Shown here piece after piece: positions 3,541-54,157 of a stretch of 64,000 nucleotides of DNA. The stretch lies in NCBI GenBank assembly GCA_964462015.1, contig CAYWXI010000004.1, positions 15,859-79,858 of the forward strand, read 5' to 3'. Each line of letters opens with the position of its first letter. Within the stretch, counting starts at the first letter, position 1. Below the pieces are notes generated by a model. It saw only the letters and a list, made by a program, of their open reading frames with translations. It had not been told where the DNA came from and made no database searches. This DNA is from an uncultured Bacteroidales bacterium. Its GTDB lineage: Bacteria > Bacteroidota > Bacteroidia > Bacteroidales > JAEINX01. A program made the position numbers and the translations under genes.

Positions 3541-3576
3541 GAAACAAAGAACAAAGAACAAGGAACAAAGAATGAG
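3541..3576. repeat. solo GAACAAA/GAACAAG word tract
   Basis: gaaacaaagaacaaagaacaaggaacaaagaatgag. Same word family as the arms flanking the 4HB gene 2.5 kb away. Confidence 0.6.
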
Positions 3577-3700: not shown

Positions 3701-3752
3701 TAAATATTTCCGCTTGAAATTAGTGGGAAAAATCTTTTCCGGTTTGTTTGGT

Positions 3753-5015
3753 TTATGTTTTTTGTTTTTTCTTTTTTGCTGCCGGAAAAAGAATGTTATT
3801 TAAAATCAATCGATAGCCTGTTGAGTTTGGATGTAAATTCAAATCTGTCGGGGGATCACCGATAAAGTGATGATAATCTTCGGGATCGTGTCCGCCGTAG
3901 AATGTCCAGGTACCCTTACCAAATTCGCCATGAATATACCTCACCTCATTTGAAGCCTTATTTTCGCCCATTATCAAAGCATCGGATTTTAAATTATCAG
4001 CATTAAAAGCCGTTGTTTGTCCCATAAAACCTTTTACGACTGATTCATGATTTTGGCATAACATAGTTGGAACCGGATCCCATTTTGCAGAAAAATCAAA
4101 TAGTGTAAAAAAATCATTGTTTTGCCTTTGATTTTTTGGACGTGTTTGAGTTACATCAATTGAGGAAATCTCGTATTCATAGGGATTAGTGCTGATTGTA
4201 AAATTGGTAAAAGCAATGCATTTATTGAAATCCAATTTTTCCTGAGCATTCGGATCAGCTCCATCACCATCAAACATCACATCACAAATATCAATACCTT
4301 CGGCTGCCAATGCAACATCAAAACTATCTCCTGCCGAACACATTGCAAACAAATATCCTCCACCGGCAACAAACTCTTTTATTTTATTTGCTACGGCCAA
4401 TTTGCATTGCGATACTTTACTATACCCCAATTTATGAGCAATTTCTTCGGAAGCTTTTACATCCTCAATATACCATTGATTATTTTTATATCTTGACCAA
4501 AACTTTCCATATTGTCCTGTGAAATCTTCGTGGTGAAGGTGTAACCAATCGTATAAAGGTAGTACGCCACTAATAATTTCTTCATCATAAATTACATCAT
4601 AAGGAATTTCGGCATAAGTGAGAGCCATTGTAACAGCATCATCCCAGGGTTGTTTATTTTTGGGAGAATATATTGCAATTTTTGGTGCTTTATGCAATTT
4701 TACTTCATCCATATTTATTTCGGGGTAGGAAATCTCCTGCAAAATTGCAGTTGATTGAACATCGGCAATTACCTGATAAGTAACACCCCGAATAATACAT
4801 TCATCTTCAAATATCTGATTATATTTAAACATATAGCTTCCCCCTCTATAGTTTAGTAACCAACTAATTTCAATATCGTGTTGTAACACCCAGTATGCTA
4901 CTCCATAAGCTTTTAGGTGATCTTTTTGAGTGTCGTCCATTGGGATAAGCAAATATGCTCCCTGGCTAAAAAGTATTGAGAATAAAAATATTGAAAGTAA
5001 AAATATTCGTTTCAT
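3753..5015 (-). CDS. secreted conserved protein of unknown function
   Basis: 420-aa ORF with signal peptide MKRIFLLSIFLFSILFSQG. Homologs are, as I recall, often auto-annotated asparagine synthetase B, which I cannot support from motifs. Confidence 0.6.
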   Translation of the reverse strand: MKRIFLLSIFLFSILFSQGAYLLIPMDDTQKDHLKAYGVAYWVLQHDIEISWLLNYRGGSYMFKYNQIFEDECIIRGVTYQVIADVQSTAILQEISYPEINMDEVKLHKAPKIAIYSPKNKQPWDDAVTMALTYAEIPYDVIYDEEIISGVLPLYDWLHLHHEDFTGQYGKFWSRYKNNQWYIEDVKASEEIAHKLGYSKVSQCKLAVANKIKEFVAGGGYLFAMCSAGDSFDVALAAEGIDICDVMFDGDGADPNAQEKLDFNKCIAFTNFTISTNPYEYEISSIDVTQTRPKNQRQNNDFFTLFDFSAKWDPVPTMLCQNHESVVKGFMGQTTAFNADNLKSDALIMGENKASNEVRYIHGEFGKGTWTFYGGHDPEDYHHFIGDPPTDLNLHPNSTGYRLILNNILFPAAKKKKQKT

Positions 5016-10177: not shown

Positions 10178-10197
10178 AATTTCCAATTTCTAATTTC
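10178..10197 (-). repeat. (AATTTCY)3 heptamer tract, identical 20-mer to 18421-18440
   Basis: aatttccaatttctaatttc ends 3 nt from the stop codon of the upstream minus-strand GT4 gene (10201-10203). A local 8-bp hairpin pairs aaatttgg with ccaaattt. Confidence 0.7.
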
Positions 10198-10200
10198 ATT

Positions 10201-11394
10201 TCAAATTTCTTCATAAAACTTAACTAATTTTTGAATAATTTTCTCATTATCATATTCTTCTTCAATTAATTTTCGTGCATTCAATCCAATGGTTTCGCAT
10301 AATTCTTTTAATTTTATACATTTTTCTATTTGATCAACAAATTCTTCCGGAGTATTTGCAATCAAAATATTTTTATTTTCTTCATAATGAATTCCTTCAG
10401 CACCTAATTTTGTCGAAATAATTGTTTTACCAAGTGCCATTCCTTCTATTATTTTAATTCGTATTCCGCTACCCGAAAATAAAGGTACTATCATAATAGC
10501 TTTGGAATTAATAAAATCCCGGGCACTTCCAACCTCGCCAACAACTTCAACATTAGTTTTTTTGTTGTTAATCAACCATTCGGGCATTTCTCTACCTGCA
10601 AGATAAAATTTCAGTTCAGGCATTTTTTTATTTATCAAATCCCAGGTTTTATTTAGAAACCAATCAATTCCTTCTTCATTTGGCATCCAGTTCATTGATC
10701 CTATGTGAAACAAAGAAGGAAATTCATATTCATCATTTGACAAATGAAATTTATTCAGATTAATTCCAAAAGGAATATCAGTAATTGGCGTTTTCGTGCC
10801 TGTTTTTTTAAAAAAAACGGCATCGGTTTTTGTAATTGCAGCTATTCCGTCATACTTTTCTAAAGCCTCAAGCTCATAATTTTTAAGAGTTTTGCTAAGA
10901 TGAGATAAATAAAATTTCTTAATCGGATTTTTAGTAGTTTGAGTAATTCTATCCCAAATTATATGCTCAATATTATGGGCACGCAAAACAATTTTTGCAT
11001 TTGAGTGTTTACGAATTGTTTCAATATAAGGAGTAACATAAAGCGTTTCTAATTGAATTATATCGTATGTATTATTGTTAAGAATCTCAATGATTTTTTC
11101 GTCAAATTCTTTAGAAATAAATCTTTGAACATGATAGGATTTGGAAGAAAAAAGATTTAAAAAAGCATCTAACGGTTTTATTCTTAGATCAAGAAAAACA
11201 CCTTCTATTTGTGTTTTTTCTTTATAGTCATCAGGAATAGAATTAATATCGACGGAATATTTATAAGAATTAACTGCAAGAACCTTTACTTTATGGCCCG
11301 AATCAACTAATCCCTCAACAATAGTGTTCATAGCAATCGGGCCTCCTTCTTTTGGAGGATATGGTGATTTATTACAAATCAAAAGAATATTCAT
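10201..11394 (-). CDS. glycosyltransferase family 4 (GT-B)
   Basis: 397 aa. C-terminal MIVPLFSGSGIRIKIIEGMALGKTIIST motif. Confidence 0.85.
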   Translation of the reverse strand: MNILLICNKSPYPPKEGGPIAMNTIVEGLVDSGHKVKVLAVNSYKYSVDINSIPDDYKEKTQIEGVFLDLRIKPLDAFLNLFSSKSYHVQRFISKEFDEKIIEILNNNTYDIIQLETLYVTPYIETIRKHSNAKIVLRAHNIEHIIWDRITQTTKNPIKKFYLSHLSKTLKNYELEALEKYDGIAAITKTDAVFFKKTGTKTPITDIPFGINLNKFHLSNDEYEFPSLFHIGSMNWMPNEEGIDWFLNKTWDLINKKMPELKFYLAGREMPEWLINNKKTNVEVVGEVGSARDFINSKAIMIVPLFSGSGIRIKIIEGMALGKTIISTKLGAEGIHYEENKNILIANTPEEFVDQIEKCIKLKELCETIGLNARKLIEEEYDNEKIIQKLVKFYEEI

Positions 11395-13876: not shown

Positions 13877-14064
13877 GAAGAAAGTTTCGGGTTTCGGGTT
13901 TCGGGTTACGCCGTCTCTTCGTCTCTTTGTTTCGCAGTCTCTCCTTTCAGGTTTTCCTTCTCCGCTAAAGCTACAGCGGACAGGCAGGTTTCAGGTTACT
14001 TTTGACCTCCATCATTCCAAAACTCCACTATTCCATCACTCCATCTCCCCGTCTCTCCTTTCAG
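13877..14064. repeat. convergent intergenic region composed almost entirely of word repeats
   Basis: (gtttcgg)x3 at 13884-13904. gtctctcctttcag occurs twice (13937-13950, 14051-14064). ccatcattccaaaactccactattccatcactccatctcccc abuts the stop of the minus-strand gene. Confidence 0.75.
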
Positions 14065-18388: not shown

Positions 18389-18440
18389 GAAATTAGAAAT
18401 TGGAAATTCAAGAGAGTCCAAATTTCCAATTTCTAATTTC
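18389..18440 (-). repeat. perfect 20-bp stem / 12-nt loop hairpin in the kinase-regulator intercistronic gap
   Basis: gaaattagaaattggaaatt (18389-18408) and aatttccaatttctaatttc (18421-18440) are exact reverse complements. The loop is caagagagtcca. Confidence 0.9.
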
Positions 18441-18445
18441 AAGTT

Positions 18446-19528
18446 TCATTTTTTCAATATTAAAGGAATTTTCACAACGAATTCTTTTGGCTCCGACCCT
18501 ACATTTTCGGTTTCCGGTTGTTCTACAACAACTTCCTCTTTTGAAAGATATTTATACCTTAATTTAATATTTTCCAATCCAACATGGTTATCCCTTTTTT
18601 CATCATTCTTGTTTTCCTTGATGGTTTTCTTGATCTGCAAATTATTCTTAACAATAATGTGTTTATTATCCTTGAATATATCAATAGTCAAAGGTTTTTC
18701 TTTAGTAATGATATTATGCTTAATAGCATTTTCAACCAACAACTGAATCGACAACGGAATCACCATTATGTTTCCGGAATTGTTTAAATTGATATTTATT
18801 CTAAGGTTTTCACTGAACCGGATTTTTTGAAGAAAACAGTAATTATTAACAAAATCTATTTCGGTTTTAAGCGGCACAAGTTCAACATCTTTGACTTCTA
18901 ACACATAGCGATATACTTCCGACAATTGTTTAATAAACTCAACTGCTCTATCCTGATCGACATAAACTAATGATGACAAAGTATTCAAACTATTAAATAA
19001 AAAATGTGGATTCACCTGGTTTTTCAATGATTCGTATTCTAAAGACAATTTTTCGCGTTTTAAAATTTCTTCGTTAGTAACAGATATTCGCCATTGTTTG
19101 AAAAATTCGATTGAATAAAGAACAAAAATAATAATGATTGTAATCATCATTTGGATTACAAAAATCCAGTACCCGCCATGCTTGAAAATAAAATCATAAA
19201 AATTGTCTCCATGATAAAGCCCAAACCACAAATAATTTACTATAATTATTGTAATTGACGAAAATACAAGCATTATAATGATATGAACAAATATTCGTTT
19301 CTTTGGATTATCTTCCCATTTAACTATACGATCAATAAAGAGTTCAGGAAGTGTATTTGCTTCTAAAAGTGAAAAACCTATTATAAATGAGTAAAGTAAA
19401 TTGTTGGTAAAAAATTCAATAGTAAGATTTGATAAATTGGAAAAAAACAAAGAAAAACATAAACCAATTAAAGTTACTATAATTGTTACTCGTATATGCT
19501 TGTAAACGACCTGTTTAGTAATTTTCAT
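18446..19528 (-). CDS. LytS/YehU-type sensor histidine kinase
   Basis: 360 aa. Multiple TM helices, His_kinase region NPHFLFNSLN, C-terminal ATPase region (NAIKHN...GLENI). Confidence 0.85.
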   Translation of the reverse strand: MKITKQVVYKHIRVTIIVTLIGLCFSLFFSNLSNLTIEFFTNNLLYSFIIGFSLLEANTLPELFIDRIVKWEDNPKKRIFVHIIIMLVFSSITIIIVNYLWFGLYHGDNFYDFIFKHGGYWIFVIQMMITIIIIFVLYSIEFFKQWRISVTNEEILKREKLSLEYESLKNQVNPHFLFNSLNTLSSLVYVDQDRAVEFIKQLSEVYRYVLEVKDVELVPLKTEIDFVNNYCFLQKIRFSENLRININLNNSGNIMVIPLSIQLLVENAIKHNIITKEKPLTIDIFKDNKHIIVKNNLQIKKTIKENKNDEKRDNHVGLENIKLRYKYLSKEEVVVEQPETENVGSEPKEFVVKIPLILKK

Positions 19529-29417: not shown

Positions 29418-29541
29418 AGACTAAATATTTTTCCTTCCGTTTTTTATTACATGCTCATTGAAATTTTAATTGTTGAAATAATTTGATCATTAAGATTCCT
29501 GAGACCATTTTGAGTTTAATTTCCATCTCTCCATCTCTCCA

Positions 29542-31296
29542 TCATTCCAATTCTTTCATTATCTTCAATTTCAATTCATCCAATTGTTCTTCGGAAATTG
29601 ATGAAGGCGAGTCAATCATCACATCTCTTCCCGAATTGTTTTTCGGGAAAGCAATAAATTCACGGATTGAATCCTGTCCGCCAAATAATGCAACCAAACG
29701 ATCGAAACCAAGAGCAATACCACCATGAGGGGGTGCCCCGAATTCAAAAGCATTCATTAAAAAACCAAATTGATCCTGGGCTTCTTCGTCGGTGAAACCA
29801 AGATGTTTAAACATTAGTTTTTGAAGATCACGATCATGAATACGAATCGAACCTCCACCAATTTCAACACCATTAATAACCATATCATAAGCATTTGCAC
29901 GAACATTTCCGGGAGCGGTTTCCAGCAATTCTATATCCTCTGCTTTTGGTGACGTGAAAGGATGGTGCATTGCGTGATAACGTTTAGTGTCTTCATCCCA
30001 TTCGAGTAACGGAAAATCTACAACCCAAAGAGGGCAATAGCTCAACGGATCGCGAAGTTCAAGGCGATTGCCCATTTCGAGACGTAATTCACAAAGGGCT
30101 TTTCGAGTGTGATCAGTCTCACCTGCAAGAACGAGTAAAAGGTCACCGGGTTTTGCACTAAATTTCTCAGCCCAGAGTTTCAATGCTTCCTGATCAAAAA
30201 ACTTATCTACAGATGATTTAAAACTTCCGTCTTCATTACATTTTACATATACCAAACCATTTGCACCAATCTGGGGCTTTTTAACAAAATTAGTTAATTT
30301 ATCTATTTGTTTTCTTGAGTATGTTCCGCAATTTTTCGCACAAATACCAACAATCAATTCAGCATCATCGAAAACTTTAAAATTCTTTCCTTTAGCAACA
30401 TCGTTTAATTCTGCAAATTTCATCCCGAAACGAATATCAGGTTTATCCGAGCCATAATATTTCATTGCTTCAGAATAAGACATCACCGGAAATTTTTCAA
30501 CTTCAATTCCTTTGACTTCTCTAAAAAGATATTTTGCAAGTCCTTCGAAAGTTTCCAAAACATCATTCTGATCAACAAATGACATTTCGCAGTCGATTTG
30601 AGTGAATTCCGGTTGGCGGTCAGCTCTCAGGTCCTCATCACGAAAACATTTTACAATCTGATAATAACGATCATAGCCGGCGATCATTAATAATTGCTTA
30701 AATGTTTGAGGTGATTGAGGTAAAGCATAAAATTCTCCTTCATTCATACGAGAAGGTACAACAAAATCTCTGGCACCTTCAGGTGTTGATTTAATTAAAT
30801 AAGGAGTTTCGATTTCAAAAAATCCTATTGAATCAAGGTATTTTCTCGTTTCAATCGACATGCGATGCCTGAGTTCCATGTTTTTTTTCAAGGGATTTCG
30901 ACGTAAGTCTAGATAACGATATTTCATCCTTAGTTCTTCACCGCCATCGGTATTATCCTCAATAGTAAAAGGAGGTAGTTTTGATTTATTTAAAACTTCG
31001 AGTTTTTCAACAATTATCTCAATTTCTCCTGTAGGGATTTTCAGGTTTTTATTGCTACGTTCTTCAATTTCACCACTTACACAAATAACAAATTCTCGTC
31101 CGAGTTTCCGGGCTTCTTCGCATAAAGCTGAATTTTTTTCCATATTAAAAACCAATTGGGTAATTCCATATCGGTCGCGAAGATCAATAAAAGTCATTCC
31201 ACCCAAATCTCTCGATTTCTGTATCCATCCGCATAAAGTTGTTTTCTGTCCTACATTTTTTTTACTTAATTCTCCGCAATTATGTGATCGTAACAT
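29542..31296 (-). CDS. aspS: aspartate--tRNA ligase
   Basis: 584 aa. OB-fold N-terminus and class II motifs ([34 protein letters not shown]). Confidence 0.97.
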
Positions 31297-32078: not shown

Positions 32079-32105
32079 AATTTCTAATTTCTAATTTCCA
32101 ATTTC
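32079..32105 (-). repeat. (AATTTCY)4 heptamer tract directly abutting a stop codon
   Basis: aatttctaatttctaatttccaatttc ends at the base before the ClC gene stop (32106-32108). Same word family as 10178-10197 and 18389-18440. Confidence 0.7.
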
Positions 32106-33881
32106 TTAGTCATCAGAGAACTCTTTAAGGATTTTCCTATAGCTTGAAAAAACATTTGCTCTGGAAATAAATCCAAGATATTTTCCATCTTTCACAACTG
32201 CCAGATTATATTTTCCCGAGTGCTGAAATCTTTTAGCTACCTGATCCATCGACTCTTCAGGATCGACAATCGAAGAAGGAACTATCATAAGGTTTTGAAC
32301 AAAAGTAATATCGTATAAATCAGGGTTAAACATAATATTCCTGATGTCGTCGAGGCGGATAATCCCGAAAAAGTTATTGTCTTTATCAACAACAGGATAA
32401 ATATTTCTTTTTGAATTGGAAATTATTTTTACCAGGTCACCAAGCGTTGCCTGCGGAGAAACCGAAGTAAAATTCCTTTCAATCAACTTAGTTACTTTCA
32501 TCCGCGACAGAGCTGCTTTATCTTTATGATGCGTTATTAATTCGCCGCGTTTTGCCAATTGATGCGTATAAACCGAATTAGTTACAAATAATTTTATTGT
32601 TGCGTAAGAAATTGTTGAGGTAATCATTAAAGGAACAAAAAGCTTATATCCGCCTGTGATCTCAGCAATAAGGAAAATTGCCGTTAGCGGGGCATGCAAA
32701 ACTCCAGCAATTAATCCTCCCATCCCGACAAGGGCAAAATTTCCGGTTGAAATATCTCCAAAATTCAGATGATTAACTAAGCTTGCAAACAGGAGTCCGG
32801 TAAAAGCACCCATAAAAAGTGTAGGAGCGAAAATACCACCAATTCCGCCGGCACCGAAAGTTATGGATGTTGCTATAACTTTGAAAAAAATTATCAAAAA
32901 CAATAGAAGAAAGACGATATAAATATTATCTCTAAATGAATAAAAAATACTATTGTTAAATAATGGATCAAAATTACCATGCAATGAAGCGTTTATAGCT
33001 TCATAACCTTCACCGTAAAGCGATGGAAAGAAAAATATCAGTATTCCGAGACAAAGCCCGCCAAAAATCACTTTTGAATACCATTTTTTAATTTTAAAAA
33101 AATTAAATTCGATAAACATATACATTCTTGTAAAGTAAACGGAAATTAATCCGGCAAGAATTCCTAAAACTATGAAATAGGGTGAATCTTTTAGAAGAAA
33201 TTCTTCGGTTATTTCATAAGGATACAAAACTGCTTGTCCGAGAAAGAAATATGAAGTTAACACGGCAGTAGCTGACGCAATTAACAAAGGAATAACCGAT
33301 GCTGCTGTTAAGTCGATCATAATAACTTCAACAGCAAAAACTACCGCAGCAATTGGCGATTTAAAAATTGCAGCCATAGCCGCAGCACTTGCAAGCCCCA
33401 ACAACAAAGTGATTTGCTTATAACTAAGACGAAACATTTGCCCAATATTTGAACCTATTGCAGCTCCTGTTGCAACAGTCGGGCCCTCAAGTCCTACCGA
33501 TCCACCAAAACCAACTGTTAATGTACTTGTAATTATCGACGAAAAAATATTGTGCCGTTTAATTATTCCGTGATTTTTCGAAATGGCAAACAAAACACTT
33601 GGTATCCCGTGGCCAACATGCTGACGAACGATGAATTTTATATAAATAACTGCAATTAAAATGCCTATTGCCGGATATGCGAAATATAAATAATTATGAT
33701 AATTGGCAGCAAAACTACTTGTCAGCAGTTCCTTAATGAGGTGAACTGAATTTTTAATAATTACTGCTCCCAGACCGGCAAGAATTCCGATAACAACACT
33801 AAGAATCATAATAAAATTCTTAATGCTAATATGCTTAACTCTCCAAATCAAAAATCGCCCTAATAAACTCTGTTTTTTCAT
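32106..33881 (-). CDS. ClC-family chloride channel/antiporter with C-terminal CBS pair
   Basis: 591 aa. GLEGPTV and GGIFAPTLFMG selectivity motifs, with two CBS-like segments at the C-terminus. Confidence 0.9.
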   Translation of the reverse strand: MKKQSLLGRFLIWRVKHISIKNFIMILSVVIGILAGLGAVIIKNSVHLIKELLTSSFAANYHNYLYFAYPAIGILIAVIYIKFIVRQHVGHGIPSVLFAISKNHGIIKRHNIFSSIITSTLTVGFGGSVGLEGPTVATGAAIGSNIGQMFRLSYKQITLLLGLASAAAMAAIFKSPIAAVVFAVEVIMIDLTAASVIPLLIASATAVLTSYFFLGQAVLYPYEITEEFLLKDSPYFIVLGILAGLISVYFTRMYMFIEFNFFKIKKWYSKVIFGGLCLGILIFFFPSLYGEGYEAINASLHGNFDPLFNNSIFYSFRDNIYIVFLLLFLIIFFKVIATSITFGAGGIGGIFAPTLFMGAFTGLLFASLVNHLNFGDISTGNFALVGMGGLIAGVLHAPLTAIFLIAEITGGYKLFVPLMITSTISYATIKLFVTNSVYTHQLAKRGELITHHKDKAALSRMKVTKLIERNFTSVSPQATLGDLVKIISNSKRNIYPVVDKDNNFFGIIRLDDIRNIMFNPDLYDITFVQNLMIVPSSIVDPEESMDQVAKRFQHSGKYNLAVVKDGKYLGFISRANVFSSYRKILKEFSDD

Positions 33882-40154: not shown

Positions 40155-41534
40155 CTAAGATTTTATTTTTGTCTTTGATTTTACTTTCTCCTTTGAAAGC
40201 GAAAATTTTATTGGTAAGTTAAATTGCACTCTGACATTTTTTCCTCTTTGGGTTCCGGGTTCCCACTTCGGCATAAGTTTGACAACCCTGATAGCTTCTT
40301 CGTCGCAACCACCTCCTATTCCACGCAATATTTTAATATTGGTAACCGAGCCGTCAGGTTCAACAACAAATGAAACATATACTTTTCCCTGAATACCATT
40401 TTCTTTTGCTTGTTTGGGATATTTCAGGTTGTCAGCGAAGAATTTTAGTCTTGCAGGTTCTCCTCCGGGATATTTTGGTGGTACTTCTACAACTCTAAAA
40501 ACTGTGTCTTTTTTTTGATCATCCTCAATTATAATTCTTGTGAGATGAGGTTTTTCCTTTTTTTCTTTTTGATCTTTCTCAATTTCTTTAATTGTTTTAA
40601 GAGATTTCTCCTTTTTTTCTTGTTTAACATTCTTCTCTTTTGAATTTTTGCTTTGTGCCGTAATTGATTTACTTGCCGTTACCGAAAATGCAAAAATTAA
40701 CATAATAGTAAGAGGCAATACAAGTAGCAACTTTAATTTAGCTCTGTGAGCCGATTTGGATTTTGTCATCATAATGAATCTTTTTTTAATTAATGAATGA
40801 TTGAAATTATTTGTTATCTCATTTAGCCTCATGCCTGTTATTAAAACAAACAAAAGGTTTTGATAATTTATTTTACTATATCCCTGGCCAAGAACACCAT
40901 CATCGGCAAGATATTCGTGGATTTCTTTTATTGAATGTTTATAAAACCAAACAAATGGATTGAACCATTGAAATATGCATAGGATCTCTAAAAATACTAC
41001 ATCAATAGAATGCCTTTGGCGAATATGGATATTTTCATGTGCAATGATTTTATCCATTTTTTCATCTGAAATGTTTTCATTATTTATAAAAATTATATTG
41101 AAAAATGAAAATGTGGAATACTTTTTTCTGATGTAAACTACTTTTGTTCCTTTGTAAAGAGAGACCCCATATTTTATTATAAAATATCTTATTTGAAAAA
41201 TCTGAAAAACAAAGCGAATCAAAAAAACAATTGCACCCGTAAAATATATTATTGAAATGTAATTTATAGTCGGAACCGAATTATTTATTGTCCGGCTGAT
41301 ACTTTGGCCGGAATAAGTAACTGTTTCTAGCATTGCAGTATAAATCGGGCTTGTTTGCGTACTATCAAATGAAATCTTAAAAAGCGGTATTAAAACAGAT
41401 AATATAACTGAACTAATTAAATAAATACGATTTAATACGAAAAACGTTTCTTTTCGAAGAAGAAACCAATATAATGAATATAAGCAGCCTAAGCAAATCA
41501 AACTTTGAATCAGGTATTCGAAATAATTAGTCAT
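40155..41534 (-). CDS. BlaR1-like M56 peptidase fused to a TonB C-terminal domain
   Basis: 459 aa. TM region with HENIHIRQRH (HExxH), a K/E-rich linker, and a C-terminal TonB_C region (PKYPGGEPARLKFF...GIQGKVYVSFVVEPDGSV). Confidence 0.85.
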   Translation of the reverse strand: MTNYFEYLIQSLICLGCLYSLYWFLLRKETFFVLNRIYLISSVILSVLIPLFKISFDSTQTSPIYTAMLETVTYSGQSISRTINNSVPTINYISIIYFTGAIVFLIRFVFQIFQIRYFIIKYGVSLYKGTKVVYIRKKYSTFSFFNIIFINNENISDEKMDKIIAHENIHIRQRHSIDVVFLEILCIFQWFNPFVWFYKHSIKEIHEYLADDGVLGQGYSKINYQNLLFVLITGMRLNEITNNFNHSLIKKRFIMMTKSKSAHRAKLKLLLVLPLTIMLIFAFSVTASKSITAQSKNSKEKNVKQEKKEKSLKTIKEIEKDQKEKKEKPHLTRIIIEDDQKKDTVFRVVEVPPKYPGGEPARLKFFADNLKYPKQAKENGIQGKVYVSFVVEPDGSVTNIKILRGIGGGCDEEAIRVVKLMPKWEPGTQRGKNVRVQFNLPIKFSLSKEKVKSKTKIKS

Positions 41535-41913
41535 TTTTCGTTGATTTTTGTTTTTCTATCTCATTTTCCATCATTTTTTTTATTTCCTCCATATCGCTTA
41601 GGCTTAAATTTTCATCTTTAGCAAAAAATGAAGCAAGAGCCGGATAAGAGTTTTCAAAGTAATTATTTATAAAACTCTTGAAATAAGTACGCGTATATTC
41701 TTTTTTTGAAACCAGTGGATAATATTGGTGTGTTTTTCCATAAGCAGTGTAACTGACAAATTTCTTTTTTTCTAAAATCCTTACAATCGTTGAAATAGTG
41801 TTATATGCCGGTTTAGGTTCCGGGAATTTATCTAAAATATCGTGAACAAAGCCTTTTCCTAATTTCCATAGGATTTGCATGATTTGTTCTTCTGCCTTTG
41901 TTAACTCCTTCAT
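41527..41913 (-). CDS. BlaI/MecI/CopY-family transcriptional repressor
   Basis: Start moved to ATG 41913 (MKELTKAEEQIMQILW...). Winged-helix Penicillinase_R type. Overlaps the downstream blaR1-like gene by 8 nt. Confidence 0.9.
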   Translation of the reverse strand: MKELTKAEEQIMQILWKLGKGFVHDILDKFPEPKPAYNTISTIVRILEKKKFVSYTAYGKTHQYYPLVSKKEYTRTYFKSFINNYFENSYPALASFFAKDENLSLSDMEEIKKMMENEIEKQKSTKND

Positions 41914-41938
41914 AGTATTTATTTTTTTACAAACATAC

Positions 41939-41974
41939 AACTAAATAATTAGTTATACAACTATTGTTTTAGTT
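41939..41974. promoter_or_regulatory. candidate BlaI operator: two AACTA-N6-TAGTT dyads 20 bp apart
   Basis: aactaaataattagtt (41939-41954) and aactattgttttagtt (41959-41974), each preceded by ATACAACTA. They lie 26-61 nt upstream of the repressor ATG. Confidence 0.45.
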
Positions 41975-43788: not shown

Positions 43789-45201
43789 TTAATCTTTCAT
43801 CTCAAAAATCAGCAAGGGATACTTTTTTCTTATCATTTTTCTTTCCTCATAAGTACGTAGCATATTATATTTTCTTGAGTATTCACTTATTGAATACACA
43901 TCCCTTAACTCATGAACAACTGTTAATAGATCAGATAAAACTTTAATGTAAGCCGAAAAATCTAAGTTTTTATTATGATAAAATTTCACAATATTATTTG
44001 GATTTTCGATCATCCGATTTTTATACTCTTTTTTCAAATCTTTGGCCTCAATTAAAGTTTCATTAAAAAGGCAAAATCCTGATTCAAGGGGTTTGATTTC
44101 AATCACATCTCCATTTTCACAAAATCTATTAACAATTTCCTTAAAATCTGATGAATCAGAATGAAATCGTGGTAAACTTAACTGTAATCCTATATCTTTA
44201 TAATACCTGAAATCAAATTCAGGATTACATGGTGTAACGGCGTAGCTTACCTTCCTAAAACCAATATCATATAATTGATTTCTTACTTTATTAATGAAGC
44301 TCATTTTAATATCTCTATGAATATGCATATTGAAAATAATGTATTTTGCATCATCCTTATCTCTTGATGATTGAATTTCTTTAATTTTATCAGGCAAGTC
44401 CGATAAAGAGATTTCATTATTATCAATTACAATAACAGGTTTTAAACTATTAGGACTTCCTTTTGGAGTAACAATAAAGATATCCTCAACTAGCGATCTT
44501 TTCTCATTTCTTTGATATAAATCAGATTCCGGCAATTCAAGATTATAATTATAAAAAATATTCTTTTGTAGAATTCCATTTTTCAATTTATTAAAGTCAA
44601 TTAAATTGATCTTTGACAATCCGTAAGATGTAGCTGTAAGTACTATCATTGAAACCAAAAGCCACTTTATGCTTCGACCTTTAAACACCTGTCTGATGGT
44701 TTTCCATGTTTGAAAATACAAAACTATAATTATGAGAATAAAAAGGTAGTTGTAATCAGGATAAAAGCTAAAAGCATAATAACCAACATGCAATGTAGGA
44801 CCGAAGAAAATCCCAAAACATACAGCCAGTTTTGAAAACCACCATAAAAAATACCAGTTAAGAACTCTTTGATCATTTACAATCGTTGTTCTTCTCAAAT
44901 TGGTCTTTCTAAAGACTTTTTTCGGCCTGTCAATCCAAAAAGTAAAACATAATGATTGGCCAAGAATCACAGAAATAAAGGCAAAAAACAAATTGTAGAA
45001 ATTTTCCTCAGAACCTGATAATTCCCATATATCGTAATACTCAGAGACTGATAACAAAGTAAAACCTTCTCTGACTACAATAACAAAAGAATAAAACACA
45101 AAAGAGTATAACAATCCAATAATAATTCCGGCGACAAATCTGAATCTTGATATTTCAAGTGATTTTGTGTCGGGATGGAGGAAATTCTTTTTTAATGTCA
45201 T
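43789..45201 (-). CDS. polytopic membrane protein with ExbD/TolR-like soluble region(s), function unknown
   Basis: 470-aa ORF. About 6 TM helices, then IVIDNNEISLSDLPDKIKE...YIIFNMHIHRDIKMSFINKVRNQLYDIGFRKVSYAV, which resembles ExbD. ATGA overlap with the upstream ORF. Confidence 0.55.
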   Translation of the reverse strand: MTLKKNFLHPDTKSLEISRFRFVAGIIIGLLYSFVFYSFVIVVREGFTLLSVSEYYDIWELSGSEENFYNLFFAFISVILGQSLCFTFWIDRPKKVFRKTNLRRTTIVNDQRVLNWYFLWWFSKLAVCFGIFFGPTLHVGYYAFSFYPDYNYLFILIIIVLYFQTWKTIRQVFKGRSIKWLLVSMIVLTATSYGLSKINLIDFNKLKNGILQKNIFYNYNLELPESDLYQRNEKRSLVEDIFIVTPKGSPNSLKPVIVIDNNEISLSDLPDKIKEIQSSRDKDDAKYIIFNMHIHRDIKMSFINKVRNQLYDIGFRKVSYAVTPCNPEFDFRYYKDIGLQLSLPRFHSDSSDFKEIVNRFCENGDVIEIKPLESGFCLFNETLIEAKDLKKEYKNRMIENPNNIVKFYHNKNLDFSAYIKVLSDLLTVVHELRDVYSISEYSRKYNMLRTYEERKMIRKKYPLLIFEMKD

Positions 45202-45710
45202 TGTTGTTCAACTAATTTATATTCATTGTTTTCAAAGGAAACAGAATCGAATGGTTTCCACTCACTTTCGTAATAACCTGATGGCTTGTTTTTAGAAGAA
45301 TTAGTTTTTAAAAACTTTTTAAAATTAAATTTATTAACAACACTTTTTCTCCGCAACAAACCACTTTTTTTATTAGTTCTAATACATCTCCAACTTTTCA
45401 ATTCCCAATCAATATATGATTGACAAATAATGTAATCGTCCTCTTCATTTTGATTTATATAAAAATAAACATCCGTATAATTTGTAATAAAACCTGGTGA
45501 AACAAAAGATATCATAAACCAAATTATGGTTAACCATAATAATATAAATGATGAAAGCCCATATTTACCGGTTTTTACTACTTTCTTATTCTCTTTTTTT
45601 ATGTTCATTATTAGCCAAACAATAATAAGAGCCTCAATTGACAAAACAGAAATACCACATTTTAAAAAATAGTTAAGAAAGGCATTAGTCACTTCAATAT
45701 TAAAAAACAC
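45198..45710 (-). CDS. small membrane protein, function unknown
   Basis: 170-aa ORF with a GTG start (alternative ATG at 45608), 2-3 TM helices, and translational coupling (ATGA) to 43789..45201. Confidence 0.45.
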   Translation of the reverse strand: MFFNIEVTNAFLNYFLKCGISVLSIEALIIVWLIMNIKKENKKVVKTGKYGLSSFILLWLTIIWFMISFVSPGFITNYTDVYFYINQNEEDDYIICQSYIDWELKSWRCIRTNKKSGLLRRKSVVNKFNFKKFLKTNSSKNKPSGYYESEWKPFDSVSFENNEYKLVEQQ

Positions 45711-45764
45711 TAAAGCAAACCATACAACGATCTTTCTTCTCCAACCCAGTTAATTGCCGGTGGT

Positions 45765-48700
45765 GTGGATGATGAAATATCTGGTTTAACCAATATAGGT
45801 TTTACATTTTCTTATAACGGTATTGATTATACACAATTTAAGGCAAGTTCAAATGGTTTTGTGAACTTAGGAGGAGCGCTTTCAGATTCTTATTGGTCCA
45901 ACGATCTGGAAAGCAGTACTAAAAAAGAAATATTGGCACCCCTCTGGGATGATCTTGAAACTAATACCGCTGGAAGTATCGGATATGAATTAAGCGGGTC
46001 ATCAGGAAGCTATATTTTGAAAATTGAGTTCAAAAATTTAGACTTCAATGGAGATTATGGAACAAATATGTATTTCCAGGTTTGGCTTTATGAAGCAACC
46101 TACGAAGTTGAATTCCGGTATGGAGCAATGGGTACGTGGACGGGGCAAAGTGCAAGTATCGGCCTAAATGATGAAACTGATGATCGTTTTATGAGTATTA
46201 CCCCTGCTGAGACACCTACATATAATACTGAAACAGTGAACAATTCAATAGCTACAAATGATTATCTCACAAACGGACTTAGATACAGTTTTAATAAAGG
46301 AAGCGATTGGTATTGTTGGAAAGGAGCAAGCAACACCGATTGGGCAACAGAAGCTAATTGGTATGGGGGTGCGTTTCCAACTACCTCACAACATGTTACA
46401 ATATCAAAGGGGAAGTCCTATGATCCCATTATAGATGAGACCGCTGCATGCAATGACTTGGGTATTGGAGATGGCACTAAAGTAACGGTGAATACTGGTA
46501 CTGATCTTACAGTTAATGATGATATTTGGGTATGTAGCGGTGGTGAGTTTGAATTGAATGGAGGTACGGTGACAGTTAGTGATGGTTTTAGATCAGTAGC
46601 TAATAGCACTGTTGACATTAATGGAGGCACATTAAATATCGGAGGCGACTGGGAGCTAAATTCTAGTGACGAATCAGCAAAGGGAACAATAGAATTATCA
46701 GGAGGAACTATTAATATTACTGATGATTGCTGTTTTTCCTCGAGTGATGTGACCGGCTCAATGACAGGTGATTTTCAAATGACAATAGGGGATGATTTTA
46801 AGATTAGTTCCAACACATGGAGTGATCCTACTGGAGGTACAATTATATTAACTGCATCAAAAGATGGTAGTATGTATTTATTCTCGAACAATGCTTCGTC
46901 TGATGTCATTGCCTATAACCTTACGATCAACGGATCAGGTAATAACTTTTATATGGCATCTACCGGTGATCTCGTTGATCAGGGCATACATATTTTTAAC
47001 AACTTCACGCTTACTACCGGTACTGTTGAAACAAAAGATGCCGATGGACATACTGATAAATTGGATGTTAATGGAACTTTTAGTATGGGAAGCGGCTCTC
47101 ATTTTAAAGATGCCATAGAATCTACTGATACGTATAGTGTGGGTAGTTTTAGTTTTGATGCAGCCAGTACATATGAGTTTTACGGTACTGCTCAAAATAT
47201 TCCAGCAACTACCTTTGGACATCTCAATGTTAGTGCGGCCGGGACAAAGTCAATAACAGGAAATACAACTGCTGCAGGAAACCTCTCAATAACAGCAGGT
47301 GTGTTAAGTGCTACTGAGACCAATGGATTTACTATAACAGGAACCACTACCAACAGTGTGGGAGCAGCAGGTTTAGTTGTAGAGTCAGACGCCTCCGGTA
47401 CCGGTTCAGTTATTTTTGGTGGTACTGTAACAGGAGATGTTACAGTTGAACGCTTTCTCACCCACGACAGATGGCATTACATAGCAGGCCAAAGCAATAT
47501 TTCAGGAAATTTCAGCACATTGAGTATGGGATTGACAGGAGGAGTAAATAACGACCAGTTTTACCGCTGGGATGAAAGCCTGGATTGGGGAGGAAATGTC
47601 GGGAACTGGGTTGATATCCTAAACGGCCCTAATGGTAATGACCCAACAATGGCAACTGAAGGTTTTTTGGCATGTAAAGGATATGCTATCAATTATATTA
47701 CCACCGATAAAACTTTAAGCCTAAGCGGAGCACCTTATACTGTCGATAAGAGTATCAACCTTACAAAAACTACAGGAAGCTTAAATGAAGGTTGTAACCT
47801 TGTTGGCAATCCTTTTACTTCCACTCTTGCAGTAAATACAGATGCCGAGACTACCAACAACTTTCTTACACAGAATACAGATGTCCTTGATGCATCTTAT
47901 GTAGCTGTTTATTTGTGGAACGAACAGGCTGGCTGGACCTATCCGGACAATAATGATTATGTTACCATTAATAATTCAAGCGGAGCAACATATATTCAAG
48001 CGGGACAGGCCTTTATGGTAGTAGCAAAAACCAATGGTGCATCTTTATCTTTTCCGGCAGCAATCAGAAAGCATGGATCAGCCTCTTTCTATAAAAATCA
48101 GGTTAACGATGAAGTTTCAAGGTTTGAACTCGGTGTATTTAACCCTGAAGGACAAACCAACTCAGTACTTATTGCTTTTATCCCCGAAATGACAAACGGC
48201 CTTGATCCTTCGTATGATGCCGGAAAAATGAGCGGCAATGCCAGTCTTTCACTCTACACAAAACTTGTTGAAGATAACGGCCATAATTTTGCAATCCAGG
48301 CCCTGCCACCATTAGATGGTACTACTTCTGTGAAATTAGGTTTAAGGGCAGAACTCACCGGAACGTATAAGTTTGAACCTGTTAATGTTGAAAACTTTAA
48401 TGAGAGTGTTTCCATTAAACTGGAAGATAAACAAACCGGTGCAATGATTGATTTAACAACCATTCCTGAATATTCATTTGGGATAAATGAAGCCGGAACC
48501 TTTGATGACAGGTTTGTGCTGCACTTTAAAGGGGCTGTCGGTATTGAGGAAGTGCTGGAAAGCAATAAAATACGTTTTTATGTTTACGACAATAAACTTT
48601 ATATTATTGATAAAGAACTGAAAAACGCAACAATTCAGTTATTCAATATGCTTGGGCAACCGGTGATGAAAAAACAATATTCACAAGCAGTAAATGTCAT

Positions 48701-48785
48701 TGATTTAAATCTATCGAAGGGATATTATATTGTTAGAATTATTACGAATAAGATGTCAGTAAAGGGGAAAATATATGTTGAGTAG
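45765..48785 (+). CDS. T9SS-sorted surface protein paralog 1 (NIDO-like N-terminal region, beta-helix-like repeats, T9SS CTD); probably 5'-truncated
   Basis: 1006-aa ORF with only a GTG start, no signal peptide, and a frame open back to 45714 without an ATG. The C-terminal 70 aa is a type A T9SS sorting domain. Confidence 0.6.
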   Translation: MDDEISGLTNIGFTFSYNGIDYTQFKASSNGFVNLGGALSDSYWSNDLESSTKKEILAPLWDDLETNTAGSIGYELSGSSGSYILKIEFKNLDFNGDYGTNMYFQVWLYEATYEVEFRYGAMGTWTGQSASIGLNDETDDRFMSITPAETPTYNTETVNNSIATNDYLTNGLRYSFNKGSDWYCWKGASNTDWATEANWYGGAFPTTSQHVTISKGKSYDPIIDETAACNDLGIGDGTKVTVNTGTDLTVNDDIWVCSGGEFELNGGTVTVSDGFRSVANSTVDINGGTLNIGGDWELNSSDESAKGTIELSGGTINITDDCCFSSSDVTGSMTGDFQMTIGDDFKISSNTWSDPTGGTIILTASKDGSMYLFSNNASSDVIAYNLTINGSGNNFYMASTGDLVDQGIHIFNNFTLTTGTVETKDADGHTDKLDVNGTFSMGSGSHFKDAIESTDTYSVGSFSFDAASTYEFYGTAQNIPATTFGHLNVSAAGTKSITGNTTAAGNLSITAGVLSATETNGFTITGTTTNSVGAAGLVVESDASGTGSVIFGGTVTGDVTVERFLTHDRWHYIAGQSNISGNFSTLSMGLTGGVNNDQFYRWDESLDWGGNVGNWVDILNGPNGNDPTMATEGFLACKGYAINYITTDKTLSLSGAPYTVDKSINLTKTTGSLNEGCNLVGNPFTSTLAVNTDAETTNNFLTQNTDVLDASYVAVYLWNEQAGWTYPDNNDYVTINNSSGATYIQAGQAFMVVAKTNGASLSFPAAIRKHGSASFYKNQVNDEVSRFELGVFNPEGQTNSVLIAFIPEMTNGLDPSYDAGKMSGNASLSLYTKLVEDNGHNFAIQALPPLDGTTSVKLGLRAELTGTYKFEPVNVENFNESVSIKLEDKQTGAMIDLTTIPEYSFGINEAGTFDDRFVLHFKGAVGIEEVLESNKIRFYVYDNKLYIIDKELKNATIQLFNMLGQPVMKKQYSQAVNVIDLNLSKGYYIVRIITNKMSVKGKIYVE

Positions 48786-48800
48786 GAATAGGATGCAGGA
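47392..48800 (+). repeat. 1.4-kb direct repeat, copy 1 (shared 3' region of the T9SS paralogs)
   Basis: Aligns with 49748-51156 at a constant offset of 2356 nt with no indels. The translated copies differ at only 5 of the last 430 aa. Confidence 0.9.
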
Positions 48801-48999
48801 TACAGGATACAAGTTACAGGATACAAGATACTTGAAACCCGAAACTATAAATTTTATCAAAAAAAGAGAAGAATTTATAATAAGTAAGATAAATATTTTT
48901 TCATGCGTTTGCCCTGATAATACCACTTTTTATAATATATCTAAATTAAGGAAAGTTTATTGCAATTCAAAAAAAAATTTGTATATTAGCACAAATGTT

Positions 49000-51141
49000 A
49001 TGCTTTTGATTATGAAATCATTTATAATATTTTTTGCAATGATATTGCTTCCAGGTTTGATGCAATCCCAAACCATAGCCGGAGGCAATCCCGGTTTTGA
49101 ATCTGACTTTAGTGGATGGACACGGTTGATAAATTGGGGGGCAGGGACTACACATATTTCTATTTCTACTTCAAACCCTCAGAGTGGTTCGAAAGCAGCT
49201 TTTTTTGATGCAGGACCTACTTATTATGAACAACTTTATGCAGACATAACCGGCTTAACTATATCAACAAAATATACATTGTCTTTTTATGCTGCAGGAG
49301 AAGAAGCTGATTTTTATGTTGGCCCAACCTCTAACGTATATGAAGGGACTTATTATTATGTAGATTGTGGCAGTTCAGGACTAACCTACTATTTACAAGT
49401 TGTGGGCTTTACAGCTACCGCAACTACAATGAGAATCTGGTTTGATTTTTACCCCGCTATGGATATGTATGTTGATAATTTTGTAATAACTGAAACGCCT
49501 GTATGGGAAGGAACTACCAACACTGATTGGGCAACCGGAACAAATTGGAGTACTGGAACTGAGCCCGGCTCATCTGATTATATTGTTTCGGTACCAAATA
49601 CTACAAATGATCCTATTATTTCAACAACTGTTTCTGTATATGAAATTAGTATTGAGAGCGGGGCAGATTTTACTATTGCTTATAATGGCAATTTAACATC
49701 ATTAAATAGTTTTACGAACGCTGGAACTTTCACTATTAAATCAACATCTTCCGGAACCGGTTCCGTTATAATAGAAGGGAGTGCTACAGGAGATGTTACC
49801 GTAGAGCGCTTTCTTACCCACGACAGATGGCATTACATAGCAGGCCAAAGCAATATTTCTGGAAATTTCAGCACATTGAGTATGGGGCTGACAGGTGGAG
49901 TAAATAACGACCAGTTTTATCGCTGGGATGAAAGTCTGGATTGGGGAGGAAATATCGGGAACTGGGTTGATATCCTAAACGGCCCTAATGGTAATGACCC
50001 AACAATGGCAACTGAAGGTTTTTTGGCATGTAAAGGATATGCTATCAATTATATTACCACCGATAAAACTTTAAGCCTAAGCGGAGCACCTTATACTGTC
50101 GATAAGAGTATCAACCTTACAAAAACTACAGGAAGCTTAAATGAAGGTTGTAACCTTGTTGGCAATCCTTTTACTTCCACTCTTGCAGTAAATACAGATG
50201 CCGAGACTACCAACAACTTTCTTACACAGAATACAGATGTCCTTGATGCATCTTATGTAGCTGTTTATTTGTGGAACGAACAGGCTGGCTGGACCTATCC
50301 GGACAATAATGATTATGTTACCATTAATAATTCAAGCGGAGCAACATATATTCAAGCGGGACAGGCCTTTATGGTAGTAGCAAAAACCAATGGTGCATCT
50401 TTATCTTTTCCGGCAGCAATCAGAAAGCATGGATCAGCCTCTTTCTATAAAAATCAGGTTAACGATGAAGTTTCAAGGTTTGAACTCGGTGTATTTAACC
50501 CTGAAGGACAAACCAACTCAGTACTTATTGCTTTTATCCCCGAAATGACAAACGGCCTTGATCCTTCGTATGATGCCGGAAAAATGAGCGGCAATGCCAG
50601 TCTTTCACTCTACACAAAACTTGTTGAAGATAACGGCCATAATTTTGCAATCCAGGCCCTGCCACCATTAGATGGTACTACTTCTGTGAAATTAGGTTTA
50701 AGGGCAGAACTCACCGGAACGTATAAGTTTGAACCTGTTAATGTTGAAAACTTTAATGAGAGTGTTTCCATTAAACTGGAAGATAAACAAACCGGTGCAA
50801 TGATTGATTTAACAACCATTCCTGAATATTCATTTGGGATAAATGAAGCCGGAACCTTTGATGACAGGTTTGTGCTGCACTTTAAAGGGGCTGTCGGTAT
50901 TGAGGAAGTGCTGGAAAGCAATAAAATACGTTTTTATGTTTACGACAATAAACTTTATATTATTGATAAAGAACTGAAAAACGCAACAATTCAGTTATTC
51001 AATATGCTTGGGCAACCGGTGATGAAAAAACAATATTCACAAGCAGTAAATGCCATTGATTTAAATCTATCGAAGGGATATTATATTGTAAGAATAATTA
51101 CGGATAAGATGTATGTAAGTGGGAAAATATATGTTGAGTAG
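49000..51141 (+). CDS. T9SS-sorted surface protein paralog 2 (CBM4/9-like N-terminal domain, shared C-terminal region, T9SS CTD)
   Basis: Start moved to ATG 49000/49012 (MLLIMKSFIIFFAMILLPGLMQSQ signal peptide). GNPGFESDFSGW...MYVDNFVITE is a CBM-like domain. The C-terminus is near-identical to paralog 1. Confidence 0.8.
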   Translation: MLLIMKSFIIFFAMILLPGLMQSQTIAGGNPGFESDFSGWTRLINWGAGTTHISISTSNPQSGSKAAFFDAGPTYYEQLYADITGLTISTKYTLSFYAAGEEADFYVGPTSNVYEGTYYYVDCGSSGLTYYLQVVGFTATATTMRIWFDFYPAMDMYVDNFVITETPVWEGTTNTDWATGTNWSTGTEPGSSDYIVSVPNTTNDPIISTTVSVYEISIESGADFTIAYNGNLTSLNSFTNAGTFTIKSTSSGTGSVIIEGSATGDVTVERFLTHDRWHYIAGQSNISGNFSTLSMGLTGGVNNDQFYRWDESLDWGGNIGNWVDILNGPNGNDPTMATEGFLACKGYAINYITTDKTLSLSGAPYTVDKSINLTKTTGSLNEGCNLVGNPFTSTLAVNTDAETTNNFLTQNTDVLDASYVAVYLWNEQAGWTYPDNNDYVTINNSSGATYIQAGQAFMVVAKTNGASLSFPAAIRKHGSASFYKNQVNDEVSRFELGVFNPEGQTNSVLIAFIPEMTNGLDPSYDAGKMSGNASLSLYTKLVEDNGHNFAIQALPPLDGTTSVKLGLRAELTGTYKFEPVNVENFNESVSIKLEDKQTGAMIDLTTIPEYSFGINEAGTFDDRFVLHFKGAVGIEEVLESNKIRFYVYDNKLYIIDKELKNATIQLFNMLGQPVMKKQYSQAVNAIDLNLSKGYYIVRIITDKMYVSGKIYVE

Positions 51142-51156
51142 GAACTGGATGCTGGA
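49748..51156 (+). repeat. 1.4-kb direct repeat, copy 2
   Basis: See copy 1. The antisense ORFs at 48254..48565 and 50610..50921 translate identically, confirming DNA identity there. Confidence 0.9.
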
Positions 51157-51345
51157 TACAAGATACAGGATGCAGGATAATGAACACTATAGCCTGTATA
51201 TTAATCGAAAACTACCCATTCTATTAATCGAAAAGTATCCACTTTTTAAAAGACCAGCCTGATTATTGCAAATAATCGGCGTAAATCAATGGATAAAAGG
51301 GATCAATGTGAAAAGTTGGAGGGTATTTAAAAAAAAACAGGGGCA

Positions 51346-51507
51346 ATCTTCTGCTGCAGATAGGGCTTCTCGATGTCAAGAAAAACTATCTGTTGCTGCG
51401 TATAGGGCTTCTCAATGTCAAGAAAGGCTATCTGTTGCTGCGAAGCTTCTCAATGTCAAGAAAGTTGATCTGCTGTTGCAGATAGGATACCTCGGAGTCA
51501 GGAAATT
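51346..51507 (+). repeat. 4-unit tandem array, 42-nt period (one 38-nt unit)
   Basis: Units start at 51346, 51388, 51430 and 51468. Consensus atctgttgctgcgtatagggcttctcaatgtcaagaaaggct. Shares period, orientation and the core GCTGC..ATAG..CTTCTC with the 53.7-kb array. Confidence 0.8.
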
Positions 51508-51661
51508 AAAGCTTATAGTCAAAAAAGGTTCTATCAGAATTAGTAAGCTAATCAACTAAGTAATATAATCAGAATAATTTCAATAATTCAAGAAAATATA
51601 TGATAACGAAAGAAGAATATGGAGGAGTAGAGTGCTTTTATCATTCCTCAAAATGTGCCTG

Positions 51662-53695: not shown

Positions 53696-54157
53696 ATTCT
53701 GCAGCACCAGATAGTTTCCCAAAACATTTTGTGACGCATTCTGTAGTAAGAAATAGCTTCTCCAAACATTTAGTGACGCATTCTGTGGCAAGGGATAGCC
53801 TCCCCAAACGTTTAGTGACGCATTCTGTAGCAAGAGATAGCTTCTCCAAACATTTAGTGACGCATTCTGTGGCAAGGGATAGCCTCCCCAAACGTTTAGT
53901 GACGCATTCTGTAGCAAGAGATAGCTTCTCCAAACATTTAGTGACGTATTCTGCTTCAAAAGATAGCCTCCCCAAACGTTTAGTGACGCATTCTGTAGAA
54001 AGGGATAGCTTTCCCAAACGTTTAGTGAGGCTTTCTGCTGCAAGAGATAGCTTCTCCAAACGTTTAGTGACGCATTCTGTAACTGCAGATAGCTTCTCCA
54101 AATATTTAATGATGCATTCTGCTGCAAGAGATAAACTCTATAAATGTCTGATAACTC
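53696..54157 (+). repeat. 11-unit tandem array, exact 42-nt period, alternating A/B unit types
   Basis: Units start at 53696 + 42n. A = attctgtagcaagagatagcttctccaaacatttagtgacgc. B = attctgtggcaagggatagcctccccaaacgtttagtgacgc. The terminal units are degenerate. Confidence 0.95.

Follow-up and report, generated by a model that had tools for sequence, protein, structure and literature searches.

When two neighbouring surface-protein genes carry different N-terminal domains on nearly identical C-terminal regions, are they parts of a switching system, or are they paralogs that have exchanged sequence by ordinary gene conversion? This question is raised by a 64,000-nucleotide (64-kb) stretch of DNA from an uncultured Bacteroidales bacterium (contig CAYWXI010000004.1; hereafter "the window"), in which two long open reading frames (ORFs) lie head to tail on the same strand (45765..48785 and 48775..51141). 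An earlier note on this DNA had described the two genes as tandem paralogs that encode cargo of the type IX secretion system (T9SS) and have recently homogenised 3' ends, and had proposed that their layout is the one that cassette-type surface variation by recombination would require. We conclude that ordinary gene conversion, and no system for switching, best explains the locus, and that the pair most likely belongs among the cases of concerted evolution of tandem paralogs by ectopic gene conversion. In the reading that we regard as likely, two adjacent T9SS surface paralogs have undergone a recent conversion of 1098 nt inside a region of older homology, and the upstream gene (copy 1) has recently been inactivated beside its downstream paralog (copy 2).

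A long identical tract inside the repeated 3' regions

An ungapped comparison of 47392-48800 with 49748-51156, at an offset of 2356 nt, gave 34 mismatches in 1409 nt, and blastn aligned 47394-48823 with 49750-51179 at 97.4% identity and likewise without gaps. The fixed, gap-free offset that had been described is therefore real. The mismatches are far from evenly placed: 23 fall in the first 207 nt, 11 fall in the last 104 nt, and there are none between, so that the mismatches at 47598 and 48697 bound an identical run of 1098 nt. In 50-nt windows, identity is 76% at 47400-47449, 92-96% at 47450-47599 and 100% at 47600-48649; it then passes through 98%, 94% and 86% up to 48799, falls to 60% at 48800-48849, and reaches a background of 18-30% beyond. 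This is the same gradient, from moderate through high and complete to dropping, that the earlier note had drawn by eye, with its core now placed at 47599-48696. The count of only 5 differing positions in the last 430 amino acids (aa) of the two proteins was reproduced as well.

We then considered what such a profile could mean. When the 34 differences were placed at random, none of 200,000 permutations reached a clean run of 1098 nt, and an analytic estimate of the probability is ~1.7e-21. Outside the core, the two copies are ~89% identical (~11% differences in both flanks). Because most of the changes in the flanks are synonymous (16 of the 25 codons that differ), they record real older divergence between the copies, in contrast to the 366 codons of the core, which are without any change. 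Nor does the core appear to be held constant by selection. Compared with the nearest relatives, on the contigs L001 and L007, it is 70-94% identical in 100-nt windows, and both relatives are ~80% identical to either copy; this variability, together with the mostly synonymous changes in the flanks, argues that the identical core does not result from constraint. Uniform divergence along the repeat, which would speak against conversion, was tested for and not seen, as 1098 nt are free of any difference while the flanks differ at ~11% of sites. The clustering of the differences and the run test thus agree with the gene-conversion gradient that had been proposed, and there is good support for a recent conversion tract that lies within older homology.

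The repeated unit resembles the C-terminal region of RemA

What is the unit that has been homogenised? Its only direct family match is the T9SS type A sorting domain, with TIGR04183 scores of 32.6 bits in copy 1 and 31.1 bits in copy 2 (cutoff 23); the PF18962 scores, 22.8 and 24.6 bits for copies 1 and 2, lie under the gathering score of 27. An AlphaFold (AF2) model of the repeated module, made from a 29-sequence alignment, is all-beta with a predicted local distance difference test score (pLDDT) of 82. When this model was searched with Foldseek, only the last ~75 aa were recognised, matching the C-terminal domains (CTDs) of NucA (8glk_D; template-modelling score (TM) 0.81, root-mean-square deviation (rmsd) 2.0) and RgpB. 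The TIGR04183 scores above cutoff and the fold match of the CTD confirm that these are tandem T9SS paralogs, as had been suggested.

The likeness to RemA and RemZ was recognised by profile only. A single module sequence found nothing among the PDB sequences, while a module profile matched residues 609-1112 of RemZ (E 1.5e-43) and residues 934-1435 of RemA (E 2.8e-39). These matches point to the shared "stalk" of the two genes being, as judged by homology, a RemA-type C-terminal region. Among 5.8 billion proteins searched, there were 183 relatives; none of them exceeded 78% identity in the module, and none did so for the head of copy 2. Among the more than 100 relatives listed (the best 120 of the 183), the module, of ~475 aa, is always C-terminal and has the same starting point. 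The domains that lie ahead of it in these relatives include LamG, Glug, G8, beta-helix and other heads, and in some proteins of ~520 aa the module stands nearly alone. The family plan consists of a signal peptide, a variable ligand-binding head, a linker of ~65 aa, the all-beta module and a terminal type A sorting domain. The 5' limit of the repeat in the window (47392-47397) is also the point at which homology to these relatives begins. RemA/RemZ-type C-terminal regions form a conserved chassis that is found under many different binding heads; if this chassis stays uniform in a genome, all paralogs may remain suited to a single apparatus for secretion and anchoring.

The gliding of Flavobacterium johnsoniae depends on RemA (Fjoh_0808), a mobile surface adhesin (PMC5445135); RemZ (Fjoh_0803), a RemA homologue, is a type A substrate of the T9SS (PMC10994853). 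In both proteins, the last ~500 residues are homologous to the module and CTD of the window genes, which also carry type A CTDs, and the F. johnsoniae paralogs are likewise clustered, five locus tags apart (PMC10994853, PMC5445135). Unlike this pair, the window genes are distant members with NIDO-like and CBM4/9-like heads, and no RemA-type head was found. Furthermore, to judge by eye from the printed HMMER alignments, the modules of RemA and RemZ have clearly diverged and show no homogenisation.

Different heads joined through a common linker

Scanned directly against Pfam, neither head gave a match, even at E <= 10, and neither Pfam nor NCBIfam gave a lectin domain, as would be expected for a RemA-type lectin head, in either of them. 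The heads can be classified by way of their homologs. Those of the copy 1 head align over residues 4-193 of the copy 1 protein (p1), and one of them, P0177, matches PF06119 (NIDO) with 32.5 bits over the residues that align to p1 aa 28-139. The domain in the copy 2 head is a rare one, for which 1.8 billion proteins yielded 21 representatives, and its relatives P0183 and P0195 match PF02018 (CBM_4_9) with 43.3 and 128 bits, respectively, over the aligned residues. By such transitive homology, the head of copy 1 is predicted to be NIDO-like and that of copy 2 CBM4/9-like, so the domain names given in the earlier note hold through P0177, P0183 and P0195 and not by direct Pfam matches.

Copy 1 also has an insert of ~280 aa that is absent from copy 2. 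Beta-helix-like repeats had been proposed for it, and part of this can be kept: the insert is repetitive, its model is all-beta, and its weak top Foldseek matches are nearly all beta-helix proteins. None of these matches reaches E <= 0.001, and they hint at a beta-helix without being significant. The claim that the N-terminal regions are unrelated also has to be divided. The heads do differ, but both genes share, just after the head, a linker of ~65 aa at 35% aa identity. Its motif, W.G..(S/N)TDW....NW....P..., precedes the module in most family members. The linkers of some homologs show weak, sub-threshold matches to Pfam Amnionless. With the linker added, the description of two different heads on one homogenised stalk and CTD is an apt one.

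Copy 1 has lost its 5' end

The two genes differ in another respect. Copy 1 lacks a signal peptide and ~45-50 N-terminal codons. Its alignment with full-length homologs starts only at residue ~47-56 of the homologs, with residue 47 of P0123, for instance, matching from position 45714. We found no signal peptide or 5' remnant of copy 1 upstream in any frame, nor elsewhere in the window. A protein with a CTD but without a Sec signal cannot reach the T9SS, and copy 1, in which inspection shows no such signal, is most likely dead as a surface protein. We consider it probably a recent pseudogene, a truncated relic. Since a frame of 1023 codons is still open in DNA of 30-40% G+C, the truncation is suggested to be recent. 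G+C is ~0.30 in the minus-strand region upstream, against 0.39-0.41 in the paralogs. The earlier note had called one of the copies apparently silent, and the loss of the signal peptide and N-terminal codons agrees with this, although we infer the lack of expression itself. A search for the Bacteroidetes -7 motif (TAnnTTTG) upstream of either copy found none, and a sigma-70 promoter scan is uninformative for this phylum.

Copy 2, by contrast, is predicted from its sequence to be a complete, secretable gene. Its likely start is the ATG at 48997 or that at 49009, followed by the signal peptide MKSFIIFFAMILLPGLMQSQ, which was judged by inspection. Within 48763-48996, the reading frame of copy 2 has no stop across the whole of the 211-nt AT-rich spacer between the genes, more than 70 codons, and the database call for copy 2 (P0001) starts at the ATG at 48775, so that its signal peptide is preceded by 74 additional residues. 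This open frame is probably the product of chance together with an over-called start, though it is odd in such AT-rich DNA. Two points for annotation follow: the start of the downstream gene has been over-called by 74 codons, and the upstream gene has been called as a complete protein of 1006 aa (P0002), although its N-terminus is gone. The features of the locus are collected in Table 1.

Table 1. Features of the paralog pair, in order along the window
Feature	Coordinates	Strand	Remarks
Frame-closing TAA at the 5' end of copy 1	45711..45713	+	homology to full-length relatives reaches up to the TAA
Copy 1, 5'-truncated RemA-like T9SS cargo gene	45714..48785	+	open from 45714; earliest start GTG 45765; no signal peptide
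Copy 1 head, NIDO-like (predicted)	45723..46292	+	first ~10 mature residues and signal peptide gone
Copy 1 linker motif	46314..46511	+	W.G..NTDWAT..NW...P; 35% aa identity to copy 2 linker
Insert of ~280 aa, copy 1 only	46512..47348	+	repetitive, all-beta, beta-solenoid-like (AF2 pLDDT 73)
Repeat copy A	47392..48823	+	RemA-type C-terminal module, CTD and 38 nt past the stop
Identical tract, copy A	47599..48696	+	1098 nt, zero differences from 49955-51052; putative latest conversion tract
T9SS type A sorting domain, copy 1	48600..48779	+	TIGR04183, 32.6 bits; 8glk_D, TM 0.81
Heptamer tract past copy 1 stop	48790..48831	+	(AGGATAC) x6
Copy 2, intact RemA-like T9SS cargo gene	48997..51141	+	714 aa
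Copy 2 head, CBM4/9-like (predicted)	49069..49500	+	transitive homology
Copy 2 linker motif	49501..49698	+	
Repeat copy B	49748..51179	+	module, CTD and 38 nt past the stop
Identical tract, copy B	49955..51052	+	
T9SS type A sorting domain, copy 2	50956..51132	+	TIGR04183; fold match
Heptamer tract past copy 2 stop	51154..51179	+	(GGATACA) x3.7

Tandem arrays and concerted evolution in other genomes

Are tandem modules, and their homogenisation, peculiar to this window? At least two modules lie within ~20 kb of each other in 18 of 82 fetched loci (L001-L082, some of them redundant). At the 12 loci in other genomes that hold two or three members, none of the interior ones lacks a signal peptide of its own, from which we conclude that such arrays normally consist of complete genes. 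Most arrays hold diverged modules, and homogenisation is thus not universal.

A comparable pattern is seen in one array. The locus L017 (191-5394), which comes from Bacteroidales and from a record whose title describes one chromosome of 4.86 Mb, has tandem genes of 566 and 963 aa with 1.2 kb of their 3' ends in common at 95%. The shared part is a mosaic of blocks with 100% and with 80-92% identity, and extends ~280 nt past the stop. A sister genome (L018, 1-4978), with ~92% identity in the surrounding sequence, carries the orthologous array. When the last 352 nt of the modules are compared, identity between the paralogs of one genome is 96.6% (L017) and 93.5% (L018), as opposed to 84.4% and 85.5% for the orthologs. 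Paralogs that are more similar to each other than to their own orthologs are the classic signature of concerted evolution, and this signature recurs in the family.

The closest relative of the module, P0003, adds a different observation. It is found on six metagenome contigs (L001-L006), all of which share one end point, ~650-700 nt ahead of the called gene. Its frame opens ~160 nt from the end of the contig, with neither a start codon nor a signal peptide. P0003 looks like a second 5'-truncated member, lying beside a recurrent assembly break that would be due to a repeat or a variable region. Exact repeats of 1.1 kb, such as the one in the window, break or confound metagenome assemblies.

How conversion may have proceeded, and what weighs against it

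A course of events that would account for the window pair begins with two modules that were already homologous before the latest event. That the genes themselves were by then paralogous is indicated by the 35% identical linker upstream of both modules. Recent non-reciprocal homologous recombination between the direct repeats, either intrachromosomal or between sister chromatids, would then have overwritten 1098 nt of one copy. Because identity falls in steps at both edges of the core, more than one event is suggested, and the steps may reflect several conversions with differing end points. In the 5' direction, the tracts would stop at the start of the module; as homology ends there, they cannot run further. 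The module of the truncated copy 1 would meanwhile keep taking part in conversion. If this is correct, the locus provides evidence of active, recent conversion in a modular family of T9SS surface proteins from uncultured Bacteroidales, a finding that holds nothing surprising for a specialist.

Several points weigh against this reading. First, the flank sites at which the copies differ do not reveal the direction of conversion: each copy agrees there with both outgroups five times (5 vs 5). Second, assembly or polishing effects may underlie the identical core, and no close strain was present in the searched collections for comparison (the best match to a genome contig was 77%, and the protein clusters had a single member). 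Third, copy 1 retains an open frame of 1023 codons in an AT-rich genome; this agrees with a very recent truncation, but some retained use would account for it as well. Finally, P0003, the closest relative, is likewise without a signal peptide, and this could hint at truncated copies as a recurring element of the family.

Artefact, duplication and cassette variation as alternatives

The second of these points can be put as an explanation of its own, in which the modules are really ~90-95% identical throughout and the identical core comes from a collapsed assembly path, or from polishing with multi-mapped reads. An exact repeat of 1098 nt does exceed short reads and typical insert sizes, and the source is a single 171.7-kb NCBI contig from an uncultured-type lineage. 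We nevertheless consider this quite unlikely. The edges of the repeat keep clean, in-frame and mostly synonymous differences, and a collapse would normally break the contig instead of leaving two tidy in-frame copies. A similar mosaic, 95% identical overall with blocks of 100%, is present in the L017 tandem pair, in a record that is titled as one chromosome. The concerted evolution in L017 and L018, which was seen independently of the window, also makes an artefact unlikely as a general explanation.

A second alternative is a simple recent duplication or domain graft, in which the 1.4-kb module was copied beside an existing head by illegitimate recombination, with no conversion and no earlier homology between the genes. 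The coincidence of the 5' boundary of the repeat with the boundary of the module speaks for this, and head shuffling is extensive in the family. Such an event predicts uniform divergence, however, and the absence of any difference in 1098 nt between two flanks that each differ at ~11% of sites contradicts this. The identity of the linkers upstream of both modules points instead to prior paralogy, and we regard a graft as very improbable. A tandem duplication of the 2356-nt unit was ruled out, being unable to give two different heads.

The most far-reaching alternative is that the locus is a cassette system, in which a silent, promoterless copy 1 donates its head to an expressed copy 2 through the shared module and so switches adhesin specificity. 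There are features of the locus that invite this idea. Copy 1 is truncated at its 5' end and without a signal peptide, yet its long frame is intact; it lies directly upstream of an intact paralog with which it has 1.4 kb of near-identical sequence in common; recombination between the two clearly takes place; and P0003, too, is a 5'-truncated gene at a recurrent assembly break. The cassette systems that are known depend either on homologous sequence flanking the variable segment at both ends or on a site-specific recombinase. At this locus, homology is found only 3' of the heads: the copies share no 5' block, the longest exact match between the linkers is 11 nt, and the best blastn alignment there is 45 nt at 80%. 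A single crossover between the direct repeats would delete head 2 together with its signal peptide and leave the truncated copy, and unequal exchange would alter only the number of copies of the head-2 gene. Scans of the neighbouring genes with Pfam, NCBIfam and PHROGs gave no recombinase, such inverted repeats as surround the locus are short and AT-rich and resemble chance matches, and tblastn found only the two copies in the window. The claim that the layout is as required for cassette-type variation is therefore not supported.

What has been converted is also telling. The converted segment is the invariant part of the genes, so conversion at this locus homogenises them and does not diversify them. 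Because the interior members of arrays elsewhere all have their own signal peptides, the truncated copy in the window is an exception and not a design feature. Switching by cassette exchange is thus highly unlikely, and we regard as extremely doubtful its broader form, in which the truncated copy 1 is a stored alternative head for a recombination-based change of ligand specificity, with the module as its handle and P0003 as a second instance.

Comparison with known recombining gene families

Returning to ordinary conversion between paralogs, the question remains which known system the window pair most resembles. In concerted evolution of bacterial paralogs by ectopic conversion, as in the tuf genes, rRNA operons and surface-protein arrays, an identical core is accompanied by diverged edges. 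The window pair likewise has both, and nothing essential differs.

The silent-cassette systems of Neisseria (pilE/pilS), Borrelia (vlsE) and Anaplasma (msp2) have many donor cassettes, with conserved blocks that flank the variable part or are interspersed with it. The likeness to the window lies in a truncated copy beside an intact paralog, a conserved segment common to both, and non-reciprocal recombination. In contrast to these systems, the window has one truncated copy, the homology is one-sided, and the part that is converted is the invariant one.

A third comparison is with the rgpA, kgp and hagA genes of Porphyromonas gingivalis, which also encode T9SS surface proteins with different N-terminal domains and with shared C-terminal modules that rearrange (PMC5266723). 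Homologous recombination and gene conversion have been invoked for their modularity (PMC5266723). These genes are dispersed and not tandem, though, and their shared domains (CAD and DUF2436) are unrelated to the RemA-type module. Gingipain diversity is also documented across strains, while the window locus is known from one genome.

Neighbouring genes and short repeats

The minus strand between 40155 and 45710, upstream of copy 1, encodes a BlaR1/M56-TonB_C protein (40155-41534) and a BlaI-like regulator (41527-41940). Two further minus-strand genes, for membrane proteins without a family match (43789-45201 and 45198-45710), lie directly against the truncated 5' end of copy 1. No sign of a mobile element emerged when the neighbouring genes were scanned with PHROGs, and Rfam had no match anywhere in the window.

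Both paralogs are followed by a heptamer tract just past the stop (Table 1). Relatives carry a single GGATACAGGATG-like word at this position, and the tracts of the two paralogs are an expansion of it. Similar arrays of 7-8-nt units, with 3-6 copies and a unit that differs from gene to gene, stand at or within ~90 nt 3' of stop codons elsewhere in the window; ~14 of its 21 period-7/8 arrays are placed in this way. The sites are 1068-1103, 3543-3572, 3742-3778, 10178-10209, 13884-13907, 14007-14045, 18419-18448, 29522-29543 and 32079-32106, in addition to the tracts at 48790-48831 and 51154-51179. Downstream of copy 2 are two related tandem arrays with a 42-nt unit, one of 3 copies (51346-51509) and one of 10.4 copies (53696-54133), which have the core ATTCTG..GCA.GAGATAG..TC in common. 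Between them are a RidA-like gene and a 319-aa ORF without a family, and on each strand the larger array falls within an ORF.

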